Part shown: positions 22,101 to 63,741 of the stretch, one piece after another
Layout: every line of letters starts with the position of its first letter
How positions within the stretch are numbered: position 1 is the stretch's first letter
Virus record (IMG/VR): IMGVR_UViG_3300045988_101018
Location: 32,001 to 96,000 of that record
DNA: 64,000 nt
Origin: a virus
Strand: one strand, 5' to 3'
Position numbers and translations under genes: made by a program
Notes under the pieces: generated by a model
What the model was told of the DNA's origin: nothing
The model's database searches: none
What the model saw: the letters and a program-made list of their open reading frames with translations, nothing else

Positions 22101-22196
22101 ATAAAAATTATTTCTCAACGTCTCTGTTTTTTATTAATAGATATCTAATGGAAAATAAAGACGTTGAGAAATCAACATATTGAAAGGAGTGGTCGC

Positions 22197-23279
22197 ATGG
22201 CAGAAACAAAGTTTCTTGACAGCATCGGCTTAACTTATCTACTTGAGAAGATAAACGCGAAGTTTTCAAAGATAGGTCATAAACATACCAAGGCGGACAT
22301 TACTGACTTCGCACATGACCACGATGGGAGATATTATACCGAAACCGAAATCGACACAAAGGTTTCCGCGCTAAACTCTGCGATTTCTGGTAAGGCCAAT
22401 TCTTCTCATAAACACGCTGCTGCTGATATTACGTCTGTGAATGCTTCTGCCATTACAGGTAGAATTGCTGCTGCTAATTTACCTAGTTACGTAGATGATG
22501 TGCTTGAGTATGCTGGAACATCTAAATTCCCTTCAACTGGTGAAGCTGGTAAGATTTATACTGATACAACGACAAACAAGATTTACCGCTGGGGCGGATC
22601 GTCTTATGTAGTTATTTCAGACACTATTGCCTTGGGTGAAACCAACTCTACCGCCTACCGTGGCGATAGAGGTAAAACTGCTTATAATCATTCGCAGATT
22701 ACAAGCGGAAACCCACATAAGGTAACTAAGTCCGATGTTGGTCTTGGCAGTGTTGACAATACTTCTGACGCAAATAAAAGTGTTAAGTACGCCAAAAGTG
22801 CAACGGCTAACAACCCGATAAAAACAACAGGTACGGGCGCTGCATATGCGGCAATTGTTGATGGCATTACGGCTCTTACTATTGGTGTTAAATTTACTAT
22901 GGTGCCACATGTTACTAGTACCACTAGGGCACCAACTCTTAATGTGAACAGTCTTGGTGCTAAAAGCATTAGAATGAGACTAACAAGCTCTACTACGGCT
23001 ACAATTCAGCTTACAAGTGCTAGTTTCTTAACCGCCAATAAGCCCGTAAATGTTATGTATGACGGGACTTATTGGGTAATTGATGACTTTGCACAGCCTG
23101 ACGTAAACAGTCTATATGGCACTGTGCCGATAGAAAAGGTTCAAGCTCATATTGCAAACACTACAATTCACATCACTGCCGCTGAGCGTGCTAAGTGGAA
23201 TGCCAAAGCAGATATTACCATTGGCACTGCTGAACCAACTTCAAGTACGTCTGGAATTTTTTATATTCAGACAAATTAA
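22197..23279 (+). CDS. tail fibre protein with H-x-H His-box motifs (paralogue of 32524..33345)
   Basis: ATG after aaaggag. Motifs GHKHTKADITDFAHDHDG and SSHKHAAADITS. About 110 aa (VMVPHVTSTTRAPTLNVNSLGAKSIR...YDGTYWVIDD...LYGTVP) are shared with 32524..33345. Confidence 0.5.
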   Translation: MAETKFLDSIGLTYLLEKINAKFSKIGHKHTKADITDFAHDHDGRYYTETEIDTKVSALNSAISGKANSSHKHAAADITSVNASAITGRIAAANLPSYVDDVLEYAGTSKFPSTGEAGKIYTDTTTNKIYRWGGSSYVVISDTIALGETNSTAYRGDRGKTAYNHSQITSGNPHKVTKSDVGLGSVDNTSDANKSVKYAKSATANNPIKTTGTGAAYAAIVDGITALTIGVKFTMVPHVTSTTRAPTLNVNSLGAKSIRMRLTSSTTATIQLTSASFLTANKPVNVMYDGTYWVIDDFAQPDVNSLYGTVPIEKVQAHIANTTIHITAAERAKWNAKADITIGTAEPTSSTSGIFYIQTN

Positions 23280-25627: not shown

Positions 25628-25674
25628 ATCTTGTTTGATTATATATCAAAGTTTGAATGAAAGGAAGTAAAAAT

Positions 25675-26118
25675 ATGAGTTGGGTTAATCTTAATGATGT
25701 TTATGTAAATCAGACTGGCGGAACTATTGCTGGCGATCTATCTGTAAACGGCGCTTTGACGGTAAATGATGGCAAGGGAACGAACACCACATACAATGTT
25801 GCCAATGAAATTACAACGTTGCGGGATTCCGTATCCCAATGTAAACCGCAATATAAAATTTATGCTGGGTCGAGGGTAATAAACATCACACAATCTTGGG
25901 GTACGCTATTTACAAAAGACGAATTTATATCCTCTTTTGGACGCGAATTTAATAATTCAAGAGACAGCATATCAGTTATGAATGGAGATGCGAAAGCCAA
26001 CAATATTACCGTTTTTGGTGTTTCGTATTATCCACAAGACGGCAAGTTGCTTGTTGCATTATCGGCGAACGGCGGCGGTGCTTTTAGGATCAATTATATC
26101 GTAGTTCTTGCTGAGTAG
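25675..26118 (+). CDS. shufflon expression locus: 56-aa constant N-terminus, then site-encoded D-S-V-S-Q, then the currently fused C-terminal cassette (cassette 0)
   Basis: ATG after aaaggaag. An in-frame copy of the 13-bp site in reverse orientation (gggattccgtatcccaa, 25823-25839) encodes D-S-V-S-Q. This is the only copy preceded by an RBS, a start codon and an N-terminal domain. The N-terminus carries a GGTIAGDLSVNGALTV beta-strand-like motif. Confidence 0.6.
   Translation: MSWVNLNDVYVNQTGGTIAGDLSVNGALTVNDGKGTNTTYNVANEITTLRDSVSQCKPQYKIYAGSRVINITQSWGTLFTKDEFISSFGREFNNSRDSISVMNGDAKANNITVFGVSYYPQDGKLLVALSANGGGAFRINYIVVLAE
25823..25839 (-). repeat. recombination site R0 (reverse orientation) inside the expressed gene
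   Basis: Its reverse complement, ttgggatacggaatccc, matches the core of R1-R8. Confidence 0.75.
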
Positions 26119-26152
26119 ACGTTATTGGCATACGCATATAAGAAATCATGCG

Positions 26153-26488
26153 CTAGTTGATATACCATGAACAAATACCCCTGTTAATAGCACCAGATAT
26201 CGAAGCAGCAACTTGAAACCCAATTGCTCCGTTTGGATGGACATAGCCATATGCGCATACGTTGAGTATGTAGCCATTGGCATTTGTCACACATGATGGC
26301 GAATAAATTGTATGGTCTGGTCGAAGATTTTCTGGAATGACATGTTCTATTCCCCAATACTCATTTGTTGATTGAGAAACAGTCCATACGAGTATACACG
26401 TGTATCCAACACGCCGAATATGAACGTATGAGGAACTACCCGGCGCTCCGTATAGCACAAGCGTATCGTCTTGGGATACGGAATGCTA
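26153..26488 (-). other. silent C-terminal cassette A (starts at the R1 forward arm with H-S-V-S-Q, ~105 codons)
   Basis: The minus-strand frame opens at the TAG inside R1 and reads CAT-TCC-GTA-TCC-CAA before the unique sequence. No RBS or ATG. Converges on the expressed gene, 35 bp apart. Confidence 0.6.
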
Positions 26489-26508
26489 AGTATGGGTTTC
26501 CGTATCCC
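26471..26508. repeat. site R1, a palindromic double site (forward arm 26471-26488 ttgggatacggaatgcta; reverse arm 26498-26508 ttccgtatccc)
   Basis: Seen directly. Cassettes diverge from the two arms. Confidence 0.75.
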
Positions 26509-26843
26509 TGACAAAAGACACATGCAAAGGAGCCAACGGCTGGGTTGTACAAACTGGCGCAATTACACGTACAGAAAATTGTGTAACCATGTGGGTAGAT
26601 GTTGTTGCTGGAAATAGCGCGAATAAGAATGTAAATACAACGTTTGCGACAATGCCGTCTGCTTTCGCGCCTAGCACATATAATATTGAACTTCCAGTAT
26701 TAGGGTTCACTACAACGTCTTATCCAATTAGCTTTTGGATAATAATCACTACAAGTGGAGAAATCAAAATTAAGCAATATGTACTACCGTCTAACACAGT
26801 TCTAGGCCAAATTAAATGTTGTTGTACGTATTTAAAAATTTAA
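26498..26843 (+). other. silent cassette B (plus strand, starts at the R1 reverse arm with V-S-V-S-L)
   Basis: The frame opens after the TAA inside R1 (gctaag) and reads GTT-TCC-GTA-TCC-CTG. It contains track ORF 26589..26843 and ends with TAA immediately before R1b. Confidence 0.55.
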
Positions 26844-26860
26844 TAGCATTCCGTATCTCA
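26844..26860 (-). repeat. site R1b (reverse orientation, 1 mismatch: tagcattccgtatctca)
   Basis: Seen directly. Confidence 0.7.
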
Positions 26861-27221
26861 GATTAAATTATTGTGGAGCGGGTCTGTGTACGGCGGCGGT
26901 TCATTTGTCGTACCAGAGCTAAAAGAATATACATTTGTAGAAGTGGTTACTTCAAATGCTGATGAAAATCATTGGGGCGTATTATGTTTTAATGACATGA
27001 ATGCATTAAAATCTACCGATGATGCATATGGCATGTGGGTATACGCAGATATACACGCTGGCTTGGATTACATAGTATCAATAAAATCAAAATTGGAAAT
27101 ACAGAAAGACTTAAAGACTGTGAAATTCACAGCTGGATATGCATTTAACGTAATGAAAGAAAACACCGTTATTACTTCAACGCAAAAACTTCGTATCGTT
27201 GCTGTGTATGGCGTTAGATAG
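26844..27221 (+). other. silent cassette B' (plus strand, starts at R1b with H-S-V-S-Q-I-K-L-L-W-S-G)
   Basis: TAG-CAT-TCC-GTA-TCT-CAG then an open frame that includes track ORF 26871..27221. Confidence 0.6.
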
Positions 27222-27227
27222 GCTGTA

Positions 27228-27581
27228 TTATAGATACAACATTCCAGATATCTTACGCACTCCATATGCATACATGCCGTTATAGTATGATGCATTTAAA
27301 GTCAGTTTTCCATCTGGGTCAAGCTCAACAAATACTGAAAATTGCGCAGAAAAATCTGCAACTCCTACAAAATATACATTTGTTTTTGGTCTATATTTTG
27401 ATGGCAATGATATGGACACTGACTTATATCCATTTCCACTTGCAGACATAAAGCCAGAAACCCTGTCACATATAACCTTTATCGCGTTTTGACTTGGAAT
27501 ATACACGACATTTATATCAAATGTTGCACCAACAAGGTCAACGCTATAGTCGCCAATTTTCTCTTGGGATACGGAATGCTA
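27228..27581 (-). other. silent cassette C (minus strand from R2, H-S-V-S-Q-E-K-I-G-D)
   Basis: Extends track ORF 27228..27506 up to R2. Converges on B', 6 bp apart. Confidence 0.6.
27564..27581 (+). repeat. site R2 (ttgggatacggaatgcta)
   Basis: Seen directly. Its last 3 nt (cta, read as TAG on the minus strand) form the stop codon of cassette D0. Confidence 0.75.
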
Positions 27582-27905
27582 TTTTAACTTTCCTATAACA
27601 GTTTCCTGTACGTACATTCCTACATTAGACATAGATGTTGCAGATGAAAGATAGCATCTAACGTCTGTTACATTCTTAATTTCGACATAATGTCCAATCC
27701 ATAATCCATTTCCAGTGACGGGATTAACATCTGCATATAAGATAGAGTCGTATATATCAGGGGCGTTAAACGCATAAGAACAAAAGTACAATGAACCAAA
27801 TAGAGCTGTTGCAGAAATGGTTTTATGAACTTTTCTTGTTGACAGAGCATAGCCTATTCCAAAATTAAAAATAGTCCAATCTCCATTTTGGGATACGGAA
27901 TACTA
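27579..27905 (-). other. silent cassette D0 (minus strand from R3, Y-S-V-S-Q-N-G-D-W)
   Basis: Extends track ORF 27579..27791. The stop codon lies inside R2. Confidence 0.6.
27888..27905 (+). repeat. site R3 (ttgggatacggaatacta)
   Basis: Seen directly. Confidence 0.75.
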
Positions 27906-27910
27906 GGTTA

Positions 27911-28161
27911 TTAAACTTCAATATAATAAACGATAACATTTATTTTTCTATTTGAATATTTCCCTGCGCTGCCGTCCCATGCCATAAGACGAACTGTTCT
28001 ACCCTGTTGTGCGTCAGTTCCCGTATGAAACGCATATCTCGCATCGTACATCCCACCAATTCCTATTGGAATCTGCCTTGCGTTAAGTCCCGTTTCGAAA
28101 TATCCATTAGGGTCTGTAGTTGTATCTATTTGTTTTGTTTTTATAATATGGGATACGGAAT
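27911..28161 (-). other. silent cassette D (minus strand from the R4 forward arm, N-S-V-S-H-I-I-K-T-K)
   Basis: Open frame of about 83 codons ending with TAA at 27911-27913. Not in the ORF track because it has no M. Confidence 0.5.
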
Positions 28162-28187
28162 TCCCATGTTTAGTATTCCGTATCCCA
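28149..28187. repeat. site R4, a palindromic double site (tgggatacggaat - tcccatgtttagt - attccgtatccca)
   Basis: Seen directly. Nearly identical to R6. Confidence 0.75.
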
Positions 28188-28527
28188 AATCAGTAATAGA
28201 GTATTGCTTTGGAGTGGAACGGCTGGCAAAGGTGTGAAAATTACGATTGACAGCGACTATTCATTTAAAGAATTCAAATCATTTTATTGCCTTACAAGTA
28301 TCGATAAAACAATCGGATTGCCGCTTGTAAGAAACTCTGGAATACAACAAGACCAGCATTTACACGGCATTACTGGATGGGATGATGGTAATACAACATA
28401 TACGCTTGTTGGGCTAATTAGAATAAATACAGAGACAACTGCGACCATTACGTCTATATCAAAACACGATATAAGTGGCAATGGTGGAATTGCTGGCAGC
28501 TTACTTAAACTATGGGGATGTTACTAA
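28175..28527 (+). other. silent cassette E (plus strand from the R4 reverse arm, S-V-S-Q-I-S-N-R-V-L-L-W-S-G)
   Basis: Extends track ORF 28204..28527. Shares the LLWSG motif with B'. Confidence 0.6.
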
Positions 28528-28530
28528 TCG

Positions 28531-28881
28531 TTACTTCCACATGCCTTTGACGTTATATTCTATAAATGCCACTGTAGTAGTATTGTTATATTTTATATCT
28601 TGGTTTAACACATATACTCCAGTGTCTACTAGCCCAATAGAAGCTCCTGTACCAGATAATACGTAAACGCCCTTTTGTCCAGAGCTATATATTGCAGAAG
28701 CGCCCTTATACAATAAACTAGTTAAAGGAAATGGAAAATCAACAGCGGGTGCAGTAACACTACCAATCCCTTTTATTTCTTTTCCTCCCCAAAATTCTGC
28801 AAGACCGCTATTCCATTTGCGATAAAACCAGATTCCAGATGTTCCCTGTGCGACAATATAGTCGTGGGATACGGAATGCTA
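28531..28881 (-). other. silent cassette F (minus strand from R5, H-S-V-S-H-D-Y-I-V)
   Basis: Extends track ORF 28531..28713 to R5. Converges on E, 3 bp apart. Confidence 0.6.
28865..28881 (+). repeat. site R5 (tgggatacggaatgcta)
   Basis: Seen directly. Its last 3 nt provide the stop codon of cassette G. Confidence 0.75.
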
Positions 28882-29144
28882 TAACGGTATAGCAATCCAA
28901 TTTATAGTACATTGTATGTGTTGATATTCTTGGTGACTATTCCAAACGTCCATAGTAAACCCAGTTGATGTTTTGTTATACACCATTTCCGTAACAGAAG
29001 GCCATCCCCATGTTTCAATTTTTGGAAACTGAAGAGATGTGATAACAACATAATCTGTTTCGATTGGTGTATTAAATTTAACCTGAACAACGTTATCATT
29101 TATGTTTGTTGTCATGGTAACAACACCTCTTTGGGATACGGAAT
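28879..29144 (-). other. silent cassette G (minus strand from the R6 forward arm, Y-S-V-S-Q-R-G-V-V-T)
   Basis: Contains track ORF 28879..29115. The stop codon is the TAG inside R5. Confidence 0.6.
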
Positions 29145-29170
29145 ACCCATGTTTAGTATTCCGTATCCCA
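29131..29170. repeat. site R6, a palindromic double site (ttgggatacggaat - acccatgtttagt - attccgtatccca)
   Basis: Seen directly. Confidence 0.75.
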
Positions 29171-29501
29171 GAGCGAATGGAAAGTCCTCAAGGGCAACAT
29201 CGGCTCCAACCATCTGGCGTACAAAATCTGCAATGGCATCTGCTATCTGAGCATCGATTGCGGCGGAGACTGGAGCATCAAGGCCAACGCGAAGTCCACT
29301 GTTGACATCATTACCATGCCAGACGAAGCATTGCCATCCACGTGGATTGTTTCAGCTGCTTGTTACCCAAAGGGCGGCAATTCAGACTTCGTTTGCGGTG
29401 TGACATTAAACAGGAAGACTAAGAAGCTATCCGTATGCAACTACTCGAACACGGCAACCAACTACTATTCCGTCACTTTCTGCTATCCAGTCAAAAATTA
29501 G
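29158..29501 (+). other. silent cassette H (plus strand from the R6 reverse arm, S-V-S-Q-S-E-W-K-V)
   Basis: Extends track ORF 29316..29501. Confidence 0.55.
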
Positions 29502-29504
29502 CAG

Positions 29505-29795
29505 TTATATGACATTCTTTTTGTATAGAATTACGAATGTAATTTTAAAATCATGCCATGTGCCTTTGTTTGTTACCTCGTTATTTTGAATGCTTGCATA
29601 TGCAGTGTCGTTATCGCGCAGACCAAATTGCGTGATAATACATGAACCTGTGTGGTTTGACTTCACCGTGGTAAGGCATACAGGCGTATAGCCATCGTAT
29701 TTCACGCTGGTGTCAAAGTCGGCAACCGCGCCATACCTTAATGATTTGGCGGCAGACGTGAAGCTCTTTGTCGTGTACTGGGATACGGAATGCTA
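29505..29795 (-). other. silent cassette I (minus strand from R7, H-S-V-S-Q-Y-T-T-K)
   Basis: Extends track ORF 29505..29705. Converges on H, 3 bp apart. Confidence 0.6.
29779..29795 (+). repeat. site R7 (tgggatacggaatgcta)
   Basis: Seen directly. Confidence 0.75.
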
Positions 29796-29797
29796 TG

Positions 29798-30102
29798 TTA
29801 AAAAATAACAAAGGTTGCCCTTACGCTTCTGTTGCCAGACTGTAAATATAAATATCCATTTTGATAATAGGCAGTTGCGTGTAGGCTTATGTCAGAAACA
29901 TAATAGCAATCTACACAATCGTCAGGCCGTGTATTATTTTTAATAAAATGAGATATGGGAAACACTGTAGAACATAGCGGTCTATTATTGTAAACGCATA
30001 TTAAACAACCCATTTTTGTTGTGGGTAAATTGACTTTAAATGATTCGTATGAAGTAGAACCGCTTGTTTTTGCCACCTCTACAGGAGCTTGGGATACGGA
30101 AT
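29798..30102 (-). other. silent cassette J (minus strand from R8, D-S-V-S-Q-A-P-V-E)
   Basis: Extends track ORF 29798..30076. The frame is closed by TAA at 30128-30130, so it is not fused to the recombinase. Confidence 0.55.
30089..30102 (+). repeat. site R8 (ttgggatacggaatcccc), the closest match to R0 and the outermost inverted partner
   Basis: Seen directly. Lies 6 bp from the recombinase stop codon. Confidence 0.75.
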
Positions 30103-30108
30103 CCCCAG

Positions 30109-31005
30109 TTAGCTTATAGCCCTTATTTTAGACTTTCTAGCTTTGTCGAATATCAGCTTCTCAACAGCCGCCTGAGCTTCTTGGCAGATTGTTTTACGAG
30201 GAACGATATAGTGATTATATGCTGTGCTAATCTCTGTATGACCAAGCATCATGGCAACGGTTTCGATGCCAACTCCTGCTTCAATTGCAAGTGTAGCCCA
30301 TGTATGACGCATGTTAGTCATAGATACATATGGTACACCCATCTTCTTACACTGTGACTTGATAGCACGAGCTGCTTTATCGGGAGATACATCACCGATA
30401 AGAAGCCCATGTCCTTTAATCTGCTTTAGGCGCTGACGTGCAAACTTAGGTAGATAGCAAGACCTAGTAGACTTTTCTGTCTTAGTTTTTACTGTGATGA
30501 TTTGACCGTTCACATATTGGCGCGACTTGCTAATACGCACCTCGCCAGTCTTAAGATTGATATCAGACCATTCGAGAGCGCAAGCTTCGCCACGGCGCAA
30601 ACCAAGAGTTACAGCACAGATAGTTACGGCTTCAGCCCAATGACCCCACATGCCGCGAAGCATCTCTGATACCTCTTGTGCGTCTAAAACATCTGGGCGA
30701 TAAGGCTTGGGGTGGTTTACTTCTATGTATGCGGTTGGATCGATAATATGTAGGCGCTTCTTGCGAATCCACCAACGGATGATTTGGCGAATACATTTAA
30801 ACGCTTTCTCTCCTGCGCCAGCTTTTTCAAATGAGTCTACCCACTCCTGCAAATCATCAGGGCAGATATCTTCAATCTCACATTCGCCCCATCGCGGAAG
30901 TACATGAAGACGCATTGATGAGTCGTATCCAGCTATGGTGGATGCCGCCATCTTCTGTGTTTTCTCGGGTAGATAATGCTGTTCATAGATGTCGATAAGT
31001 TTCAT
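30109..31005 (-). CDS. tyrosine site-specific recombinase (298 aa), candidate shufflon invertase
   Basis: R (LGLRRGEA), H-x-x-R (MRHTWATLA), LGHT and the Y of STAYNHY in canonical order. Sits directly beside the site array. Confidence 0.75.
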   Translation of the reverse strand: MKLIDIYEQHYLPEKTQKMAASTIAGYDSSMRLHVLPRWGECEIEDICPDDLQEWVDSFEKAGAGEKAFKCIRQIIRWWIRKKRLHIIDPTAYIEVNHPKPYRPDVLDAQEVSEMLRGMWGHWAEAVTICAVTLGLRRGEACALEWSDINLKTGEVRISKSRQYVNGQIITVKTKTEKSTRSCYLPKFARQRLKQIKGHGLLIGDVSPDKAARAIKSQCKKMGVPYVSMTNMRHTWATLAIEAGVGIETVAMMLGHTEISTAYNHYIVPRKTICQEAQAAVEKLIFDKARKSKIRAIS

Positions 31006-31021
31006 TTTTTAAATCCTTTCA

Positions 31022-31082
31022 TTGAAAAAATCCCACGCAATTTAACTCGAAATGAGTATATAACTTGCGTGGGATTTTTTCA
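31022..31082. promoter_or_regulatory. perfect 19-bp inverted repeat (ttgaaaaaatcccacgcaa ... ttgcgtgggattttttcaa, 23-nt loop) in the divergent promoter region
   Basis: Seen directly. Lies between the recombinase start (31005) and the divergent plus-strand gene (31200). Confidence 0.5.
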
Positions 31083-31199
31083 ATGGTGCATATAAATTTA
31101 TTTATATATAAATTAAAAGTTCTACAATTTTGAATATTAGAAAACACATTTTATGTTACAATATTAACCATATTTATAAACTCTAATGACCAAGGAGGT

Positions 31200-32523: not shown

Positions 32524-33345
32524 ATGGATGGAAATAAGATAATGAAATCCCTTGGCGGTCTTGAGGTGTATGACGAAGCTTGCAGACAGCGCGTTGTAGG
32601 TATTACAAGTGCTGGCACTGGTGCTGCATATACTGCTGCCGTTAAGGCAATTGAAGTTCTTTCTGTTGGTGCTAACTTTGTTATGGTGCCACATGTTACT
32701 AGCACTACTACTGCGCCAACATTAAATGTCAATGGTCTTGGCGCGAAGAATATTAGGATACGTATTTCTAGCTCTCCTAAATCTACTATTCAGCTGCCAA
32801 GTGAAGATTTCCTTACAAACGGCAAGCCAGTAAGACTTATATATGACGGTCAATATTGGATTGTAGATGATATGGTTCAGCCTAATGCCAATGGCCTATA
32901 CGGTACTGTTCCTGTGGCTTCTGGTGGCACTGGTGGCACAACTGTTGAAGAAGCCAGAAACAACTTGGGTCTTGGAAATACAAGCGGTGCTCTGCCTATT
33001 GCTAATGGCGGTACTGGATGTACAACACTTGCAGATGCTAAGAAGCTATTTAGCGTAGCAGATGATACTGGTGTCATTCCAGTATCGAGTGGCGGCACTG
33101 GTGCCAAGACCGCTGCTGATGCTAGAACGAATCTCGGTATTACTCTTGCCAATATCGGAGCCGCTGCAAGTTCTCATAAGCATGATGCTTCAGATATTAC
33201 AAGCGGCGCTCTTGCTATCGAGCATGGTGGTACTGGTGCAACAAATGCGAAAGCTGCCTTGAATAATCTCGGTATCAGATGGGGTAAAGATAAAGCCGAG
33301 GATTCTGGTACACCGAATACCATCTATATTCAGTTGCTTGATTAG
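32524..33345 (+). CDS. tail fibre protein (paralogue of 22197..23279)
   Basis: VMVPHVTSTTTAPTLNVNGLGAKNIRIRISS...YDGQYWIVDD...LYGTVP. The C-terminus carries G-G-T-G repeats. Confidence 0.5.
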   Translation: MDGNKIMKSLGGLEVYDEACRQRVVGITSAGTGAAYTAAVKAIEVLSVGANFVMVPHVTSTTTAPTLNVNGLGAKNIRIRISSSPKSTIQLPSEDFLTNGKPVRLIYDGQYWIVDDMVQPNANGLYGTVPVASGGTGGTTVEEARNNLGLGNTSGALPIANGGTGCTTLADAKKLFSVADDTGVIPVSSGGTGAKTAADARTNLGITLANIGAAASSHKHDASDITSGALAIEHGGTGATNAKAALNNLGIRWGKDKAEDSGTPNTIYIQLLD

Positions 33346-62586: not shown

Positions 62587-63741
62587 CTAAGAAATTAGAG
62601 CGAGAATCTTGTTTGCGTCCTCGATATTGTCAATAGACTTGGGGTTGTCATACCCAAGATTCTTGACGGCTGCAAGAACTGGCTTAATCTTTGCAATGTC
62701 AGACTTGTTCTCAGTAAAGAAATCAACAATCTGAGCAACTACATCATCCACAGCAGCCTGAGACTTAGCCTGCTCTTCCTGCTCGGCAACGCGCTTCTCA
62801 AGCTCCTTCTCCTGCTTAGCCTGCTTCTTCTTAGCTGTATCAAGTGACACGCCAGACTTAGACTGCTCAGACTTGATTGCGTCTGTAAGCGCCTGAATAA
62901 ATGCATCTGCATTCATATCAATCTCTGGAATGATATTAGCAAAACGAGAACCAGAATCAACAGCGTAGTTATCGTCACGGAACTTAATCTTGCGCGACTC
63001 TGACGCGACCTTGTTTACAGTCTCGTCCTTCTTTGTCACAGCGTTCTTGCGCCCAGTCTTCTCCTTGATAACATCACGGTCAATGTATGCTAGACCAAGG
63101 AAGTGTAGATTCTTCTTAAGCGCGTTAAAATAATTCTGCTGCTGATCTGAAGTAAGAATCTGATAAGACTCACCAGAGACTACATCAGAAATCTCTTTCG
63201 TCTTAACATGCCCGATGATAATAGAAGCAACTCCAACATTACGAAGTCGAGCCATCATATCAAACATAATCTCAATGGCCTTTTTCTCACCGCGACCATA
63301 GCCAGACCACGCCTGATTAATGCTCTTTACACACTTCTCGGCATGTCCGCTATTGCGGCACTCCTTGTTCCACATATCGATTGACTTCTGTTCCGCAATG
63401 TCAATCAGGTGGTCATATGTATCGAAAATTACCGCCTTAAGATTGGGATACTCGCTAGTCTTATTCTCGATAATATCCTCACAAACATCAGCTAGACCAG
63501 CGCTGTTTGTAAGCTCATCATAATCCATATCCCACTCAGGACAGTTAATATAGTTAATTCCCTGAATGGCATCGGCTCCTCGCTCAGTGCCACATTCTAG
63601 GAACAGATAGCCGTCATCGCCTGCAAGCTTCTCACAAACCTCTTTCATAAGGGTAGTCTTACCAACTTTAGACTCGCCAAGAAGACAAATGTTATATGCA
63701 AGAGGGTCTAAACGCACATTATTTTTTTTACCAAACGCCAT
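62587..63741 (-). CDS. RecA-fold ATPase (Sak4/AAA_24-like) with a C-terminal coiled-coil extension
   Basis: Walker A LLGESKVGKTT, Walker B AVIFDTYD, and a Lys/Glu-rich C-terminal ~90 aa. Confidence 0.5.
   Translation of the reverse strand: MAFGKKNNVRLDPLAYNICLLGESKVGKTTLMKEVCEKLAGDDGYLFLECGTERGADAIQGINYINCPEWDMDYDELTNSAGLADVCEDIIENKTSEYPNLKAVIFDTYDHLIDIAEQKSIDMWNKECRNSGHAEKCVKSINQAWSGYGRGEKKAIEIMFDMMARLRNVGVASIIIGHVKTKEISDVVSGESYQILTSDQQQNYFNALKKNLHFLGLAYIDRDVIKEKTGRKNAVTKKDETVNKVASESRKIKFRDDNYAVDSGSRFANIIPEIDMNADAFIQALTDAIKSEQSKSGVSLDTAKKKQAKQEKELEKRVAEQEEQAKSQAAVDDVVAQIVDFFTENKSDIAKIKPVLAAVKNLGYDNPKSIDNIEDANKILALIS

Follow-up and report, generated by a model that had tools for sequence, protein, structure and literature searches.

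An array of one expressed fibre gene, 12 silent C-terminal cassettes and a recombinase gene, embedded in a 64,000-nucleotide stretch of viral DNA (the window), is very probably a Rin-type shufflon, by which one small tail-fibre protein exchanges its C-terminal receptor-binding domain. The system, which the first-pass annotation leaves unnamed, is of a known kind and is unusually large: 13 alternative tips with almost no spacer DNA. Its recombination site does double duty, as the first-pass annotation had recognized: it encodes a Ser-Val-Ser joint common to all tips and, where the copy is silent, can provide the stop of the preceding tip. This built-in stop is real and recurs across the family; the publications consulted give no more than a hint of it.

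The array and its sites

Sites were counted as matches to TGGGATACGGAAT with at most two mismatches and tested against shuffled sequence: 13 lie in the array, all within 25822-30106, where shuffling predicts 1.1 matches per whole 64 kb; the window-wide total of 14 was reached by none of 100 shuffles. (The fourteenth match, at 63522, is unrelated to the array.) The core of the window sites is TTCCGTAT. All 13 open, in the frame xAT-TCC-GTA-TCC-CAx, into an ORF of 83-124 amino acids; the residue before S-V-S is D, H, V, Y or N and the residue after it Q, H or L, exactly as had been annotated, and TAG stands immediately 5' of the xAT-TCC-GTA-TCC reading in 8 of the 12 silent sites. From left to right the elements are:

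25675-26118, +: expressed tail-fibre or receptor-binding gene, 147 aa from ATG, ribosome-binding site AGGAAG
25822-25839, +: S1, expression site, CGG-GAT-TCC-GTA-TCC-CAA (R-D-S-V-S-Q)
25825-26118, +: cassette 1, expressed now, 97 aa, own TAG at 26116-26118
26153-26485, -: cassette 2, silent, 110 aa, convergent with cassette 1
26471-26510: divergent hinge of S2 (26471-26488, -) and S3 (26493-26510, +; left arm TGG-GTT)
26496-26843, +: cassette 3, 115 aa, family 4, own TAA at 26841-26843
26844-26861, +: S4, TAG-CAT-TCC-GTA-TCT-CAG, right arm with one mismatch
26847-27221, +: cassette 4, 124 aa, family 9
27228-27578, -: cassette 5, 116 aa, family 8
27564-27581, -: S5, TAG-CAT-TCC-GTA-TCC-CAA, TAG at 27579-27581
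27579-27902, -: cassette 6, 107 aa, stop supplied by S5
27888-27905, -: S6, TAG-TAT-TCC-GTA-TCC-CAA, TAG redundant
27911-28162, -: cassette 7, 83 aa, own TAA
28148-28188: divergent hinge of S7 (28148-28165, -; GGG-AAT) and S8 (28171-28188, +; TAG-TAT)
28174-28527, +: cassette 8, 117 aa, family 1
28531-28878, -: cassette 9, 115 aa
28864-28881, -: S9, TAG at 28879-28881
28879-29145, -: cassette 10, 88 aa, stop supplied by S9
29131-29171: divergent hinge of S10 (29131-29148, -; GGG-TAT) and S11 (29154-29171, +; TAG-TAT)
29157-29501, +: cassette 11, 114 aa
29505-29792, -: cassette 12, 95 aa
29778-29795, -: S12, TAG-CAT-TCC-GTA-TCC-CAG, TAG redundant
29798-30103, -: cassette 13, 101 aa, own TAA
30089-30106, -: S13, outermost site, GGG-GAT-TCC-GTA-TCC-CAA, recombinase stop codon 2 nt away
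30109-31005, -: Rin-like tyrosine recombinase, 298 aa, Xer-like, no arm-binding domain

The fibre protein, which probably binds a receptor, has three parts: ~50 aa of constant N-terminus, then the S-V-S joint, then the resident cassette. (The ORF lister places the start of its gene at 25657.) S1 has a sense codon at the position where silent sites have TAG, is nearly palindromic (GGGAT-TCCGT-ATCCC), and forms a perfect 17-nt inverted repeat with S13. Of the 4279 nt from 25825 to 30103, the coordinates assign 4185 (97.8%) to cassettes, with gaps of 0-8 nt between head-to-tail cassettes, and the annotated head-to-tail storage with "no intergenic DNA" is therefore essentially right. No internal frameshifts or stops were found in the 13 window cassettes. 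The annotated suggestion of a common structural scaffold gains no support: BLASTP at E<1e-3 links no pair among these 13, and the best profile-profile probability for their families is 15.7%, over 24 residues (the LLWSG stretch).

The recombinase matches Pfam Phage_integrase (2.2e-16), a SAM-like N-terminal domain and the PHROG 1 integrase (1.5e-45), while a search of NCBIfam gave Xer matches below threshold only; its invariant residues are R137/R138, K175, R233-H234, H256 and Y266. Two components are homologous to those of described Rin-type loci: the recombinase is 35-38% identical, over its full length, to the enzymes whose genes adjoin the cassette arrays in Bifidobacterium phage PMBT6 and in Siphoviridae sp. 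ctl617, and one cassette family of the window, that of cassette 5, is homologous to PMBT6 and ctl617 cassettes (single linkage at BLASTP E<1e-3 joins family 8 to families 67, 69, 70, 71, 73 and 75).

A stop codon in the left arm

The sites designated R2 (26471-26488, here S2) and R5 (27564-27581, here S5) had been read on the minus strand as TAG-CAT-TCC-GTA-TCC-CAA, and they do read so. The further proposal, that this TAG terminates the cassette upstream, is correct at two junctions in the window: the TAG of S5 (27579-27581) is the actual stop of cassette 6 (27579-27902), in frame and at distance 0, and the TAG of S9 (28879-28881) that of cassette 10, a junction absent from the original list. 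It fails at R2 and at three junctions whose cassettes have a TAA of their own. R2 belongs to a divergent pair of sites and therefore no cassette reads into it (neither site of the S2/S3 hinge is entered by an ORF); the "D0" ORF (26486-26710, minus), which ends on the S2 TAG and had been taken for the upstream cassette, was rejected, having no site at its head and lying antisense to the cassette at 26496-26843 (+). As to the other three, cassette 3 has a TAA as its stop, and the next codon in frame is the S4 TAG (26841-26846); the TAG of S6 is redundant because the TAA of cassette 7 (27911-27913) lies 8 nt earlier, out of frame, and that of S12 because the TAA of cassette 13 (29798-29800) starts 5 nt earlier, also out of frame. 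At S8 (28171-28173) and S11 (29154-29156) the TAG is present without any incoming ORF.

Comparison with 21 related loci (22 with the window) places these cases in a pattern, bearing in mind that counts across related loci are not independent events. TAG is found at 82 of 84 sites that lie behind a head-to-tail cassette (98%), at 9 of 22 hinge sites (41%) and at 7 of 40 outermost sites (18%), and is the actual cassette stop at 52 of 83 head-to-tail junctions; the overlap of TAG and site, on which the annotation had staked its proposal, is kept in related genomes, and frameshifts, the other feature that it had named as contrary evidence, occur in no cassette. Cassettes of 31 of 48 families always terminate on the site TAG. 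Roughly one junction in four is out of frame, and some 20 keep the TAG although the upstream cassette has already ended out of frame. The first codon of expression sites is always CGG, TGG or GGG, and all 146 left arms read N-R-G, with N-R-G-N-W-T as the common pattern. In four loci (L015, L016, L017 and L021) it is the recombinase ORF that terminates on the stop of the first site. Coriobacteriia prophages do likewise: in 12 of 12 checked, the arm contains the recombinase stop, and the TTCC core is 0-5 nt away; their arm stop occurs at several offsets, also as TGA ([TGA]TTCCGTATCC), and the TGA serves cassettes and recombinase gene alike.

Is termination what the TAG is for? TAG-YAT might instead be the left-arm sequence preferred by the recombinase or its second monomer (for example, as the asymmetry determinant that confines the enzyme to inversion), stop use being an unselected by-product. 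This is a tentative alternative, and a rather unlikely one, for which a case can nevertheless be made: 1) The TAG is retained even at out-of-frame junctions that do not need it, their own stops lying 2-18 nt upstream, and at the hinge sites, lacking an incoming ORF, that were counted above. 2) TAA, the preferred stop in long ORFs of this phage (42 TAA, 11 TAG, 2 TGA), essentially never substitutes; the sole replacement is at a site that has decayed, in L011 and L019. 3) N-R-G-N-W-T is common to all arms. 4) Rci of R64 is confined to inversion by arm asymmetry (PMC11852207). Sites without TAG recombine all the same, however: expression sites do, and a palindromic CGG-AAT hinge bears different cassettes in L002 and L007, so that the TAG is dispensable for recombination. 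Moreover, TAG frequency follows the incoming ORF, and the Coriobacteriia arms, with TGA at another offset, still provide the stop of cassettes and recombinase gene. Termination is the preferred account of the arm stop, and the annotated idea that it makes each cassette read-through-proof in its silent position is a putative purpose, but its retention where redundant or without an incoming ORF means that stop function alone is an insufficient explanation; shared descent of units composed of cassette end and arm, or a DNA-level preference, may contribute to some TAGs.

That TAG alone separates in-frame cassettes at many junctions also allows the opposite thought, that ribosomes are meant to pass through such junctions, by way of suppression or of a code in which TAG is sense, to yield multi-domain fusions; public gene calls P0025 and P0091 do translate TAG as Gln and produce fused cassettes. 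This is most improbable. The standard code fits the window (ORFs extend to 2395 aa, and TAG ends 11 ordinary genes), the window has no tRNA genes and therefore no suppressor tRNA, and a quarter or so of the junctions, as noted, are out of frame. The contigs of P0025 and P0091 are 1.0 and 2.5 kb long and nearly all cassette, and a gene-caller artefact is the simplest explanation.

Shuffling between relatives and a proposed mechanism

The 143 cassettes of the 22 loci fall into 76 families, in arrays of 2-13 sites. Relatives have cassettes in common, in changed order and orientation, with breakpoints at the sites. In five of six relatives compared, the flanks are collinear at ~87-96% identity and collinearity breaks at the two outer sites; in the sixth, L003, the flanks are more diverged. 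The expressed family differs among relatives and is in some of them silent in the window: family 9 (cassette 4) is expressed in L002 and family 1 (cassette 8) in L007, while family 13 (cassette 1, expressed in the window) is silent in L003 and L008. Convergent pairs without an intervening site keep their linkage (8/9, 3/1, 13/19, 16/5 and 22/23, by family), whereas head-to-tail neighbours lose it; the 13/19 pair is linked in L008 too, yet inverted, at 97% identity, and an S2/S3-type hinge in L005 bears other cassettes. Among public proteins one N-terminus occurs with 24 different C-terminal families. All 17 families with at least three members are found behind more than one left arm with TCCGTATCC constant, which supports, at the sequence level, the annotated placement of the crossover inside the conserved core. 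Contig ends frequently fall at or within the array; these break positions and the comparison of relatives, which are only ~87-96% identical, suggest that inversion may proceed within one phage population.

A mechanism can be proposed. The Xer-like tyrosine recombinase (30109-31005), as the likely catalyst of the inversions, would act on 18-nt sites with three parts: the left arm varies (N-R-G-N-W-T), TTCCGTA is invariant and is probably the 7-nt crossover spacer, and the right arm, TCCCA, is conserved. Recombination of the expression site, inside the gene, with an oppositely oriented silent site would furnish the ~50-aa N-terminus with a new ~100-aa cassette; inversions between silent sites would re-sort the store. 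Because spacer and right arm lie within coding sequence, the joint x-S-V-S-x appears in every variant. The left arm would never cross over and would therefore remain joined to its upstream sequence; an ORF entering a site (a cassette or, in some relatives, the recombinase gene) meets a stop codon there, in this lineage TAG, the sole stop compatible with N-R-G. With the stop supplied by the left arm, cassettes can do without one of their own and need no spacer DNA; the expression site, which needs to be read through, has CGG, TGG or GGG instead. Arm asymmetry may bias the reaction toward inversion only.

One can also think of the array as an integron-like store, in which direct-repeat units are excised as circles and re-inserted or traded between co-infecting phages, inversion being secondary. 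Direct-repeat sites are indeed numerous (nine in a row in L015); cassette content and order vary among phages with 92-99% identical recombinases, and on the scale of families and array sizes just given; and the module is found in 39%-GC phages and GC-rich Coriobacteriia prophages alike. Even so, this reading is improbable: in each both-ended locus a single expression site faces the opposite way, and nothing but inversion can serve it; convergent cassette pairs persist as invertible units; inversions are present in virion and prophage reads of described Rin loci (PMC6109161); and ordinary homologous recombination between diverged phages is an alternative source of the content differences.

Relation to known inversion systems

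The layout of the inversion-based shufflon proposed here is common to the Rin systems of Bifidobacterium and Eggerthella lenta clade-1 prophages, PMBT6 and ctl617: an armless Xer-like tyrosine recombinase at one end and a constant N-terminal fibre or receptor-binding part at the other; tandem small C-terminal cassettes (~95-125 aa), mutually dissimilar; and a short asymmetric repeat before each cassette with one more within the expressed gene. The E. lenta prophage rix repeat, "ttccgtat" in PMC8778435, is the core found here, identical to TTCCGTAT; rix of prophages Bb423phi1 and Bl157phi1, TTCCCTAACCC in Mavrich et al. 2018 (PMC6109161), is close to it. The PMBT6/ctl617 core, TTCCGTAA, is one base away, in sites that read TAG-C(T/A)T-TCC-GTA-ACC (TAG-CTT-TCC-GTA-ACC in PMBT6) with TGG-GAT-TCC-GTA-ACC for expression. 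Differences are of scale and host: a gut phage of ~130 kb and 39% GC known from metagenomes only, as against GC-rich actinobacterial prophages of ~35-40 kb; 13 sites and cassettes (relatives have up to 13) as against ~4-5 cassettes in Bb423phi1, with its five possible full-length genes (PMC6109161); and a constant part of ~50 aa as against 168. The E. lenta paper places the repeat "just after a stop codon" (PMC8778435), and the original Rin paper raises the problem of deletion between directly repeated sites (PMC6109161); the sections consulted in these two papers contain no description of a systematic left-arm stop, of stop sharing with the recombinase gene, or of two arm classes (TAG-YAT and NGG-RAT).

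The R64/IncI shufflon (Rci, sfx, pilV) is alike in that a tyrosine recombinase brings about multiple inversions among many sites, in that one adhesin gene has alternative C-terminal segments, and in that convergent segment pairs are the invertible units. The target in R64, with its 7 sfx sites and four segments, is a pilus adhesin rather than a phage fibre, and R64 is not known to have long head-to-tail cassette runs with directly repeated sites and an arm stop like those of the window. Its site is likewise asymmetric: of the arms on the two sides of a 7-bp spacer, one is conserved and the other variable (PMC11852207). Plasmid searches with the 298-aa recombinase returned generic integrases only, at no more than 26% identity, and no specific relationship to Rci. 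Gin (Mu), Cin (P1) and Min (p15B) match the window in purpose only: phage-encoded inversion swaps a tail-fibre C-terminus and changes host range, in Min with several crossover sites, but these are serine recombinases with other sites and a dependence on enhancer and Fis, whereas the window encodes a tyrosine recombinase. The shufflon of a BV01-like Phocaeicola phage (PMC13596623) is also a multi-cassette tail-fibre shufflon adjoining a recombinase, in which cassette inversions supply different stop positions; unlike the window it has three cassettes, six isoforms and another motif, TGGGAGAACT, which starts as the window site does (TGGGA...).

Thirteen sites, one fibre gene and a recombinase

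The motif TGGGATACGGAAT, read with up to two mismatches, has 14 matches in the window; 13 lie within 25826-30102, eight on the plus and five on the minus strand. Expectation is 1.1 matches per shuffle and none of 100 shuffles reached 14, an excess that can be judged statistically overwhelming; the copies seen by the first-pass annotation are real. Read on its coding strand as xAT-TCC-GTA-TCC-CAx, each of the 13 opens an uninterrupted frame of 83-124 codons; the residues flanking the encoded S-V-S are those previously listed (D, H, V, Y or N before; Q, H or L after). The sites are numbered S1 to S13, and each cassette, the C-terminal tip headed by a site, takes its site's number. Twelve sites head silent cassettes and one lies in the expressed gene; the two ends of the array are marked as follows:

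25822-25839, site S1, inside the plus-strand gene 25675-26118
30109-31005, minus strand, gene of a tyrosine recombinase (298 aa), adjoining the last site, S13

The order is S1> <S2 / S3> S4> <S5 <S6 <S7 / S8> <S9 <S10 / S11> <S12 <S13 / recombinase (> and < denote plus- and minus-strand cassettes, and the slash a divergent site pair or boundary). Cassettes take up 4185 of 4279 nt (97.8%): head-to-tail junctions span 0-8 nt, convergent ends 3-34 nt, and the three divergent site pairs about 12-13 nt. A scan of the locus for promoters and terminators found nothing beyond shuffled expectation.

The constant segment of the fibre gene (25675-25824) lies on the far side of the array from the recombinase, in a neighbourhood of tail-fibre genes. 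The expressed protein has no match in Pfam, PHROGs or NCBIfam; AlphaFold2, supplied with 44 homologues, confidently predicts a C-terminal beta-sandwich (residues 58-147, pLDDT >90); a helix before it (42-54) runs up to the S-V-S joint, and the prediction is poor for the N-terminus. No mutual homology was found among the 13 cassettes (83-124 aa): no pair scores at BLASTP E<1e-3, and the best profile-profile comparison (hhalign probability 15.7%) covers an LLWSG stretch. The common scaffold once suggested by such shared motifs is thus unsupported by either method at the level of sequence; it may yet exist at the level of the fold. (The two tail-fibre genes that flank the shufflon, 22164-23279 and 32524-33345, have a segment of about 300 nt in common, at about 69% identity (22830-23131 and 32614-32883), and this paralogy is also present in relatives.)

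The recombinase is Xer-like: it consists of the Pfam Phage_integrase and SAM-like core-binding domains only, without an arm-binding domain, and retains the invariant residues R, K, R-H, H and Y. Nineteen relatives, 72-99% identical to it, come from IMG/VR contigs (many about 130 kb long), each with an array of 2-13 sites of the same kind. A genome scan found others at 36-72% identity, mostly in Collinsella and also in Enteroscipio, Olsenella, Eggerthellaceae and Bifidobacterium; where the adjoining arrays are readable, their core is the window's. The closest cellular relatives (54-72% identity; loci L022-L069) are mostly from GC-rich Coriobacteriia, the window having 39% GC, and the recombinase and its sites appear, by such comparison, to have moved as a module between unrelated phage lineages.

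A Rin-type shufflon among its relatives

To which known system does the locus belong? On its sequence it is a Rin shufflon, of the published family described in 2018 in Bifidobacterium prophages (PMC6109161). The same type was reported in 2022 in Eggerthella lenta prophages, with an 8-bp repeat 'ttccgtat' located 'just after a stop codon' (PMC8778435); the window core TTCCGTAT is equal to the repeat as quoted in that report. The features of the Rin type are found together here: 1) an armless Xer-like recombinase; 2) a short, asymmetric, rix-like repeat that precedes every variable cassette and occurs once inside the expressed gene (13 sites); 3) a constant fibre segment opposite the recombinase; 4) dissimilar cassettes of about 100 aa. 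Homology to the Rin recombinases rests on comparison with the best annotated phage matches, Siphoviridae sp. ctl617 (38%, 8e-53) and Bifidobacterium phage PMBT6 (34.5%, 9e-50), whose recombinases are encoded beside tail-module arrays of small ORFs that carry sites of this type (TAG-C(T/A)T-TCC-GTA-ACC; expression site TGG-GAT-TCC-GTA-ACC). By megablast the locus matched none of 50,697 phage records.

The sfx site of plasmid R64 has a 7-bp spacer with one conserved and one variable arm (PMC11852207), a plan like that of the window's sites with their putative spacer of the same length. Kinship with Rci (R64, IncI plasmids) was rejected: tblastn against 72,556 plasmids returned only generic integrases at no more than 26% identity, and no Rci-annotated match was among the best. 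A serine-invertase switch (Gin/Cin/Min) is excluded by the tyrosine recombinase being the only one at the locus. Nor is this an integron: integron-integrase models match a C-terminal stretch only (32.9 against a 265-bit cut-off), the cassettes are start-less gene fragments, and the sites are simple 18-nt elements, not attC hairpins.

The 143 cassettes of the window and 21 related loci (L001-L021) fall into 76 families, and the same families recur in other orders and orientations among phages whose recombinases are 92-99% identical. The breakpoints of these rearrangements fall at the sites. Two families that are silent in the window stand at the expression site of another locus: family 9 (cassette 4) in L002 and family 1 (cassette 8) in L007. 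Family 13, expressed in the window, belongs to the silent store of L003 and L008. Convergent pairs that have no site between them (families 8/9, 3/1, 13/19, 16/5 and 22/23) are never separated, while head-to-tail neighbours separate, as recombination restricted to sites would predict. Homology with relatives breaks exactly at S1 and S13; beyond these points the flanks are collinear, at about 87-96% identity, in five of the six relatives compared, the sixth (L003) being more diverged. The expressed protein was compared with its 120 best public homologues: 114 have a common N-terminus and a joint at residue ~51, and 24 C-terminal families stand behind that N-terminus.

Several assemblies end at or within the array. 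The contig of L105 stops exactly on a hinge (a divergent pair of sites), those of L010 and L017 within 40 nt after their first site, and those of L001 and L004 likewise on or just after a site. Such ends fit the branching of assembly graphs by inversion variants, as would be expected of a region that varies within samples. The shufflon of L011 (8001-8117) seems to be in decay: its recombinase frame is stopped after 38 codons, its array is down to two or three sites, and one degenerate site (TAA-CAT-TCCGTATCACAA) heads a frame of 21 aa. L019 has the same small array and a second copy of the expression-site junction.

A stop codon in the arm that probably stays behind

The site combines an invariant TTCCGTA with a right arm, TCCCA, and with a left arm, the variable bases before TTCCGTA, of one of two classes. 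Because TTCCGTA is conserved and S1 and S13 are near-palindromes (TGGGA/TTCCGTA/TCCCA), the site probably consists of 5-nt arms flanking a 7-nt spacer, TTCCGTA. In L012 and L015 every site reads TTCCATA: a crossover spacer should co-vary in this way, since partner sites must match. All 17 cassette families with at least three members are joined to more than one type of left arm; TCCGTATCC is constant throughout, and the bases 3' of it mostly travel with the cassette. The left arm would then stay out of the exchange and remain with the upstream DNA. Consistent with this, the distance from stop to next site is constant in most families seen at several junctions (6, 11 and 12; family 4 varies). 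(S4, 26844-26861, departs from TCCCA in its right arm, which is TCTCA. Since three relatives carry this cassette family with TCCCA, the difference is read as a point change; it might weaken the site.)

In the window, TAG directly precedes xAT in eight of the 12 silent sites (S2, S4, S5, S6, S8, S9, S11 and S12); the codon is CGG or GGG at S1, S7, S10 and S13, and TGG at S3. It had been proposed that this TAG ends the upstream cassette, and the mechanism is largely right; the purpose given for it, to make silent cassettes proof against read-through, is a conjecture. Of the two examples offered, S5 (there R5) stands: its TAG (27579-27581) is the actual stop of cassette 6. The other, S2 (R2), does not: the ORF said to end there (D0, 26486-26710, minus strand) does not start with a site, runs antisense to cassette 3 and can be ruled out as a cassette. 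A true case was overlooked at S9, whose TAG (28879-28881) is the actual stop of cassette 10. Elsewhere the codon is redundant or unread. At S4 it is in frame, just after the upstream cassette's own TAA; at S6 and S12 a TAA in another frame closes the upstream cassette 8 nt (S6) and 5 nt (S12) ahead of the TAG; S2, S8 and S11 each belong to a divergent pair, so no ORF reads into their TAG.

TAG in the left arm by upstream context (146 sites, window and L001-L021; counts are without phylogenetic correction and contain pseudo-replication)
Head-to-tail cassette upstream: TAG in 82/84
Divergent hinge partner upstream: TAG in 9/22
Outermost site, nothing upstream: TAG in 7/40

Six of the seven outermost sites that bear TAG are recombinase-proximal, in loci whose recombinase ORF stops either at the TAG itself or 11 nt short of it; the remaining one (in L004) is outermost only in appearance, because its contig ends inside the array. 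At 52 of the 83 head-to-tail junctions the TAG is the working stop, and for 31 of the 48 cassette families it is so without exception. In L015, L016, L017 and L021 the recombinase gene itself stops on the TAG of the first site; in all 12 Coriobacteriia prophages checked, 0-5 nt separate its stop from the TTCC core, and the stop is sometimes a TGA fused to the core ([TGA]TTCCGTATCC), a stop that cassettes there also use.

Is the TAG, then, simply part of what the recombinase recognizes? That it is also kept where it is redundant as a stop, and that the usual stop of this genome, TAA (it ends 42 of 55 long ORFs), essentially never takes its place, would speak for recognition alone. All left arms read N-R-G, a pattern that no stop codon but TAG satisfies. 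On the other side, TAG frequency follows upstream context (82/84, 9/22, 7/40, as tabulated), and sites that lack TAG seem to recombine all the same: the expression sites would, and comparison of loci shows a palindromic hinge that holds different cassettes in L002 and L007. Recognition alone is, on balance, rather unlikely. The dependence of TAG on context, its use as a stop by recombinase and cassettes, and the apparent recombination at sites without it lead us to favour selection for the stop codon in the arm; in our reading the same left-arm bases would be under two constraints at once.

(In the hinge just mentioned, L002 10902-10925 and L007 10171-10194, two divergent sites overlap in a perfect 26-nt palindrome, TTGGGATACGGAATTCCGTATCCCAA, in which each site's left arm is the other site's core.)

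One can extend this, as a rather unlikely further reading, to the whole Rin family: the same six bases of the left arm might both set the asymmetry of the site, and hence a bias to inversion only, and terminate the abutting ORF, making spacer, right arm, cassette and stop-bearing left arm a self-contained module exchanged between lineages, from GC-rich Coriobacteriia and Bifidobacterium prophages to ~130-kb phages of 39% GC. If true, phages would in this way assemble libraries of receptor-binding tips that have no fixed limit; the 22 loci here show 76 families.

Reach of the array and its traces in assemblies

What is new is the host lineage (a human-gut phage of ~130 kb and 39% GC), an array of this size (13 tips within 4.3 kb), and a quantitative, family-wide stop-in-arm rule that includes the recombinase gene. 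Among phage-encoded tyrosine-recombinase shufflons the locus is a further, large case; it extends their range beyond actinobacterial prophages and offers a site anatomy (variable left arm, TTCCGTA, TCCCA) drawn wholly from comparative data, with the stop in the putatively non-exchanged arm as a family-wide design rule that even the recombinase gene uses. Arrays of this kind break metagenome assemblies, mislead gene callers into small 'hypothetical' ORFs and into taking some TAGs as sense, and conceal the breadth of host range of gut phages. A compact recombinase with short, defined sites could find use in inversion-based generators of diversity.

A code in which TAG is sense is rejected for the window: the standard code gives intact ORFs of up to 2395 aa, and TAG ends ordinary genes. 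There are no tRNA genes in the window. In two public homologues of the fibre protein (P0025 and P0091), TAG between in-frame cassettes is rendered as Gln, which fuses two or three cassettes (for example ...VVLAE-Q-TLLAYAYKK... and ...RTAQ-YSVSQ...). Their source contigs, 1.0 and 2.5 kb, are made of shufflon cassettes, and the fusions are best read as a gene-caller artefact, a TAG-sense code having apparently been chosen on tiny contigs.

The divergent gap between the start of the recombinase gene (31005) and the next tail gene (31200) holds an inverted repeat at 31020-31085 (AAAAAATCCCACGCAA...TTGCGTGGGATTTTTT; 25 nt, 96% complementary, 16-nt loop), which could be an operator or a bidirectional terminator; the related contig L102 ends within its counterpart.
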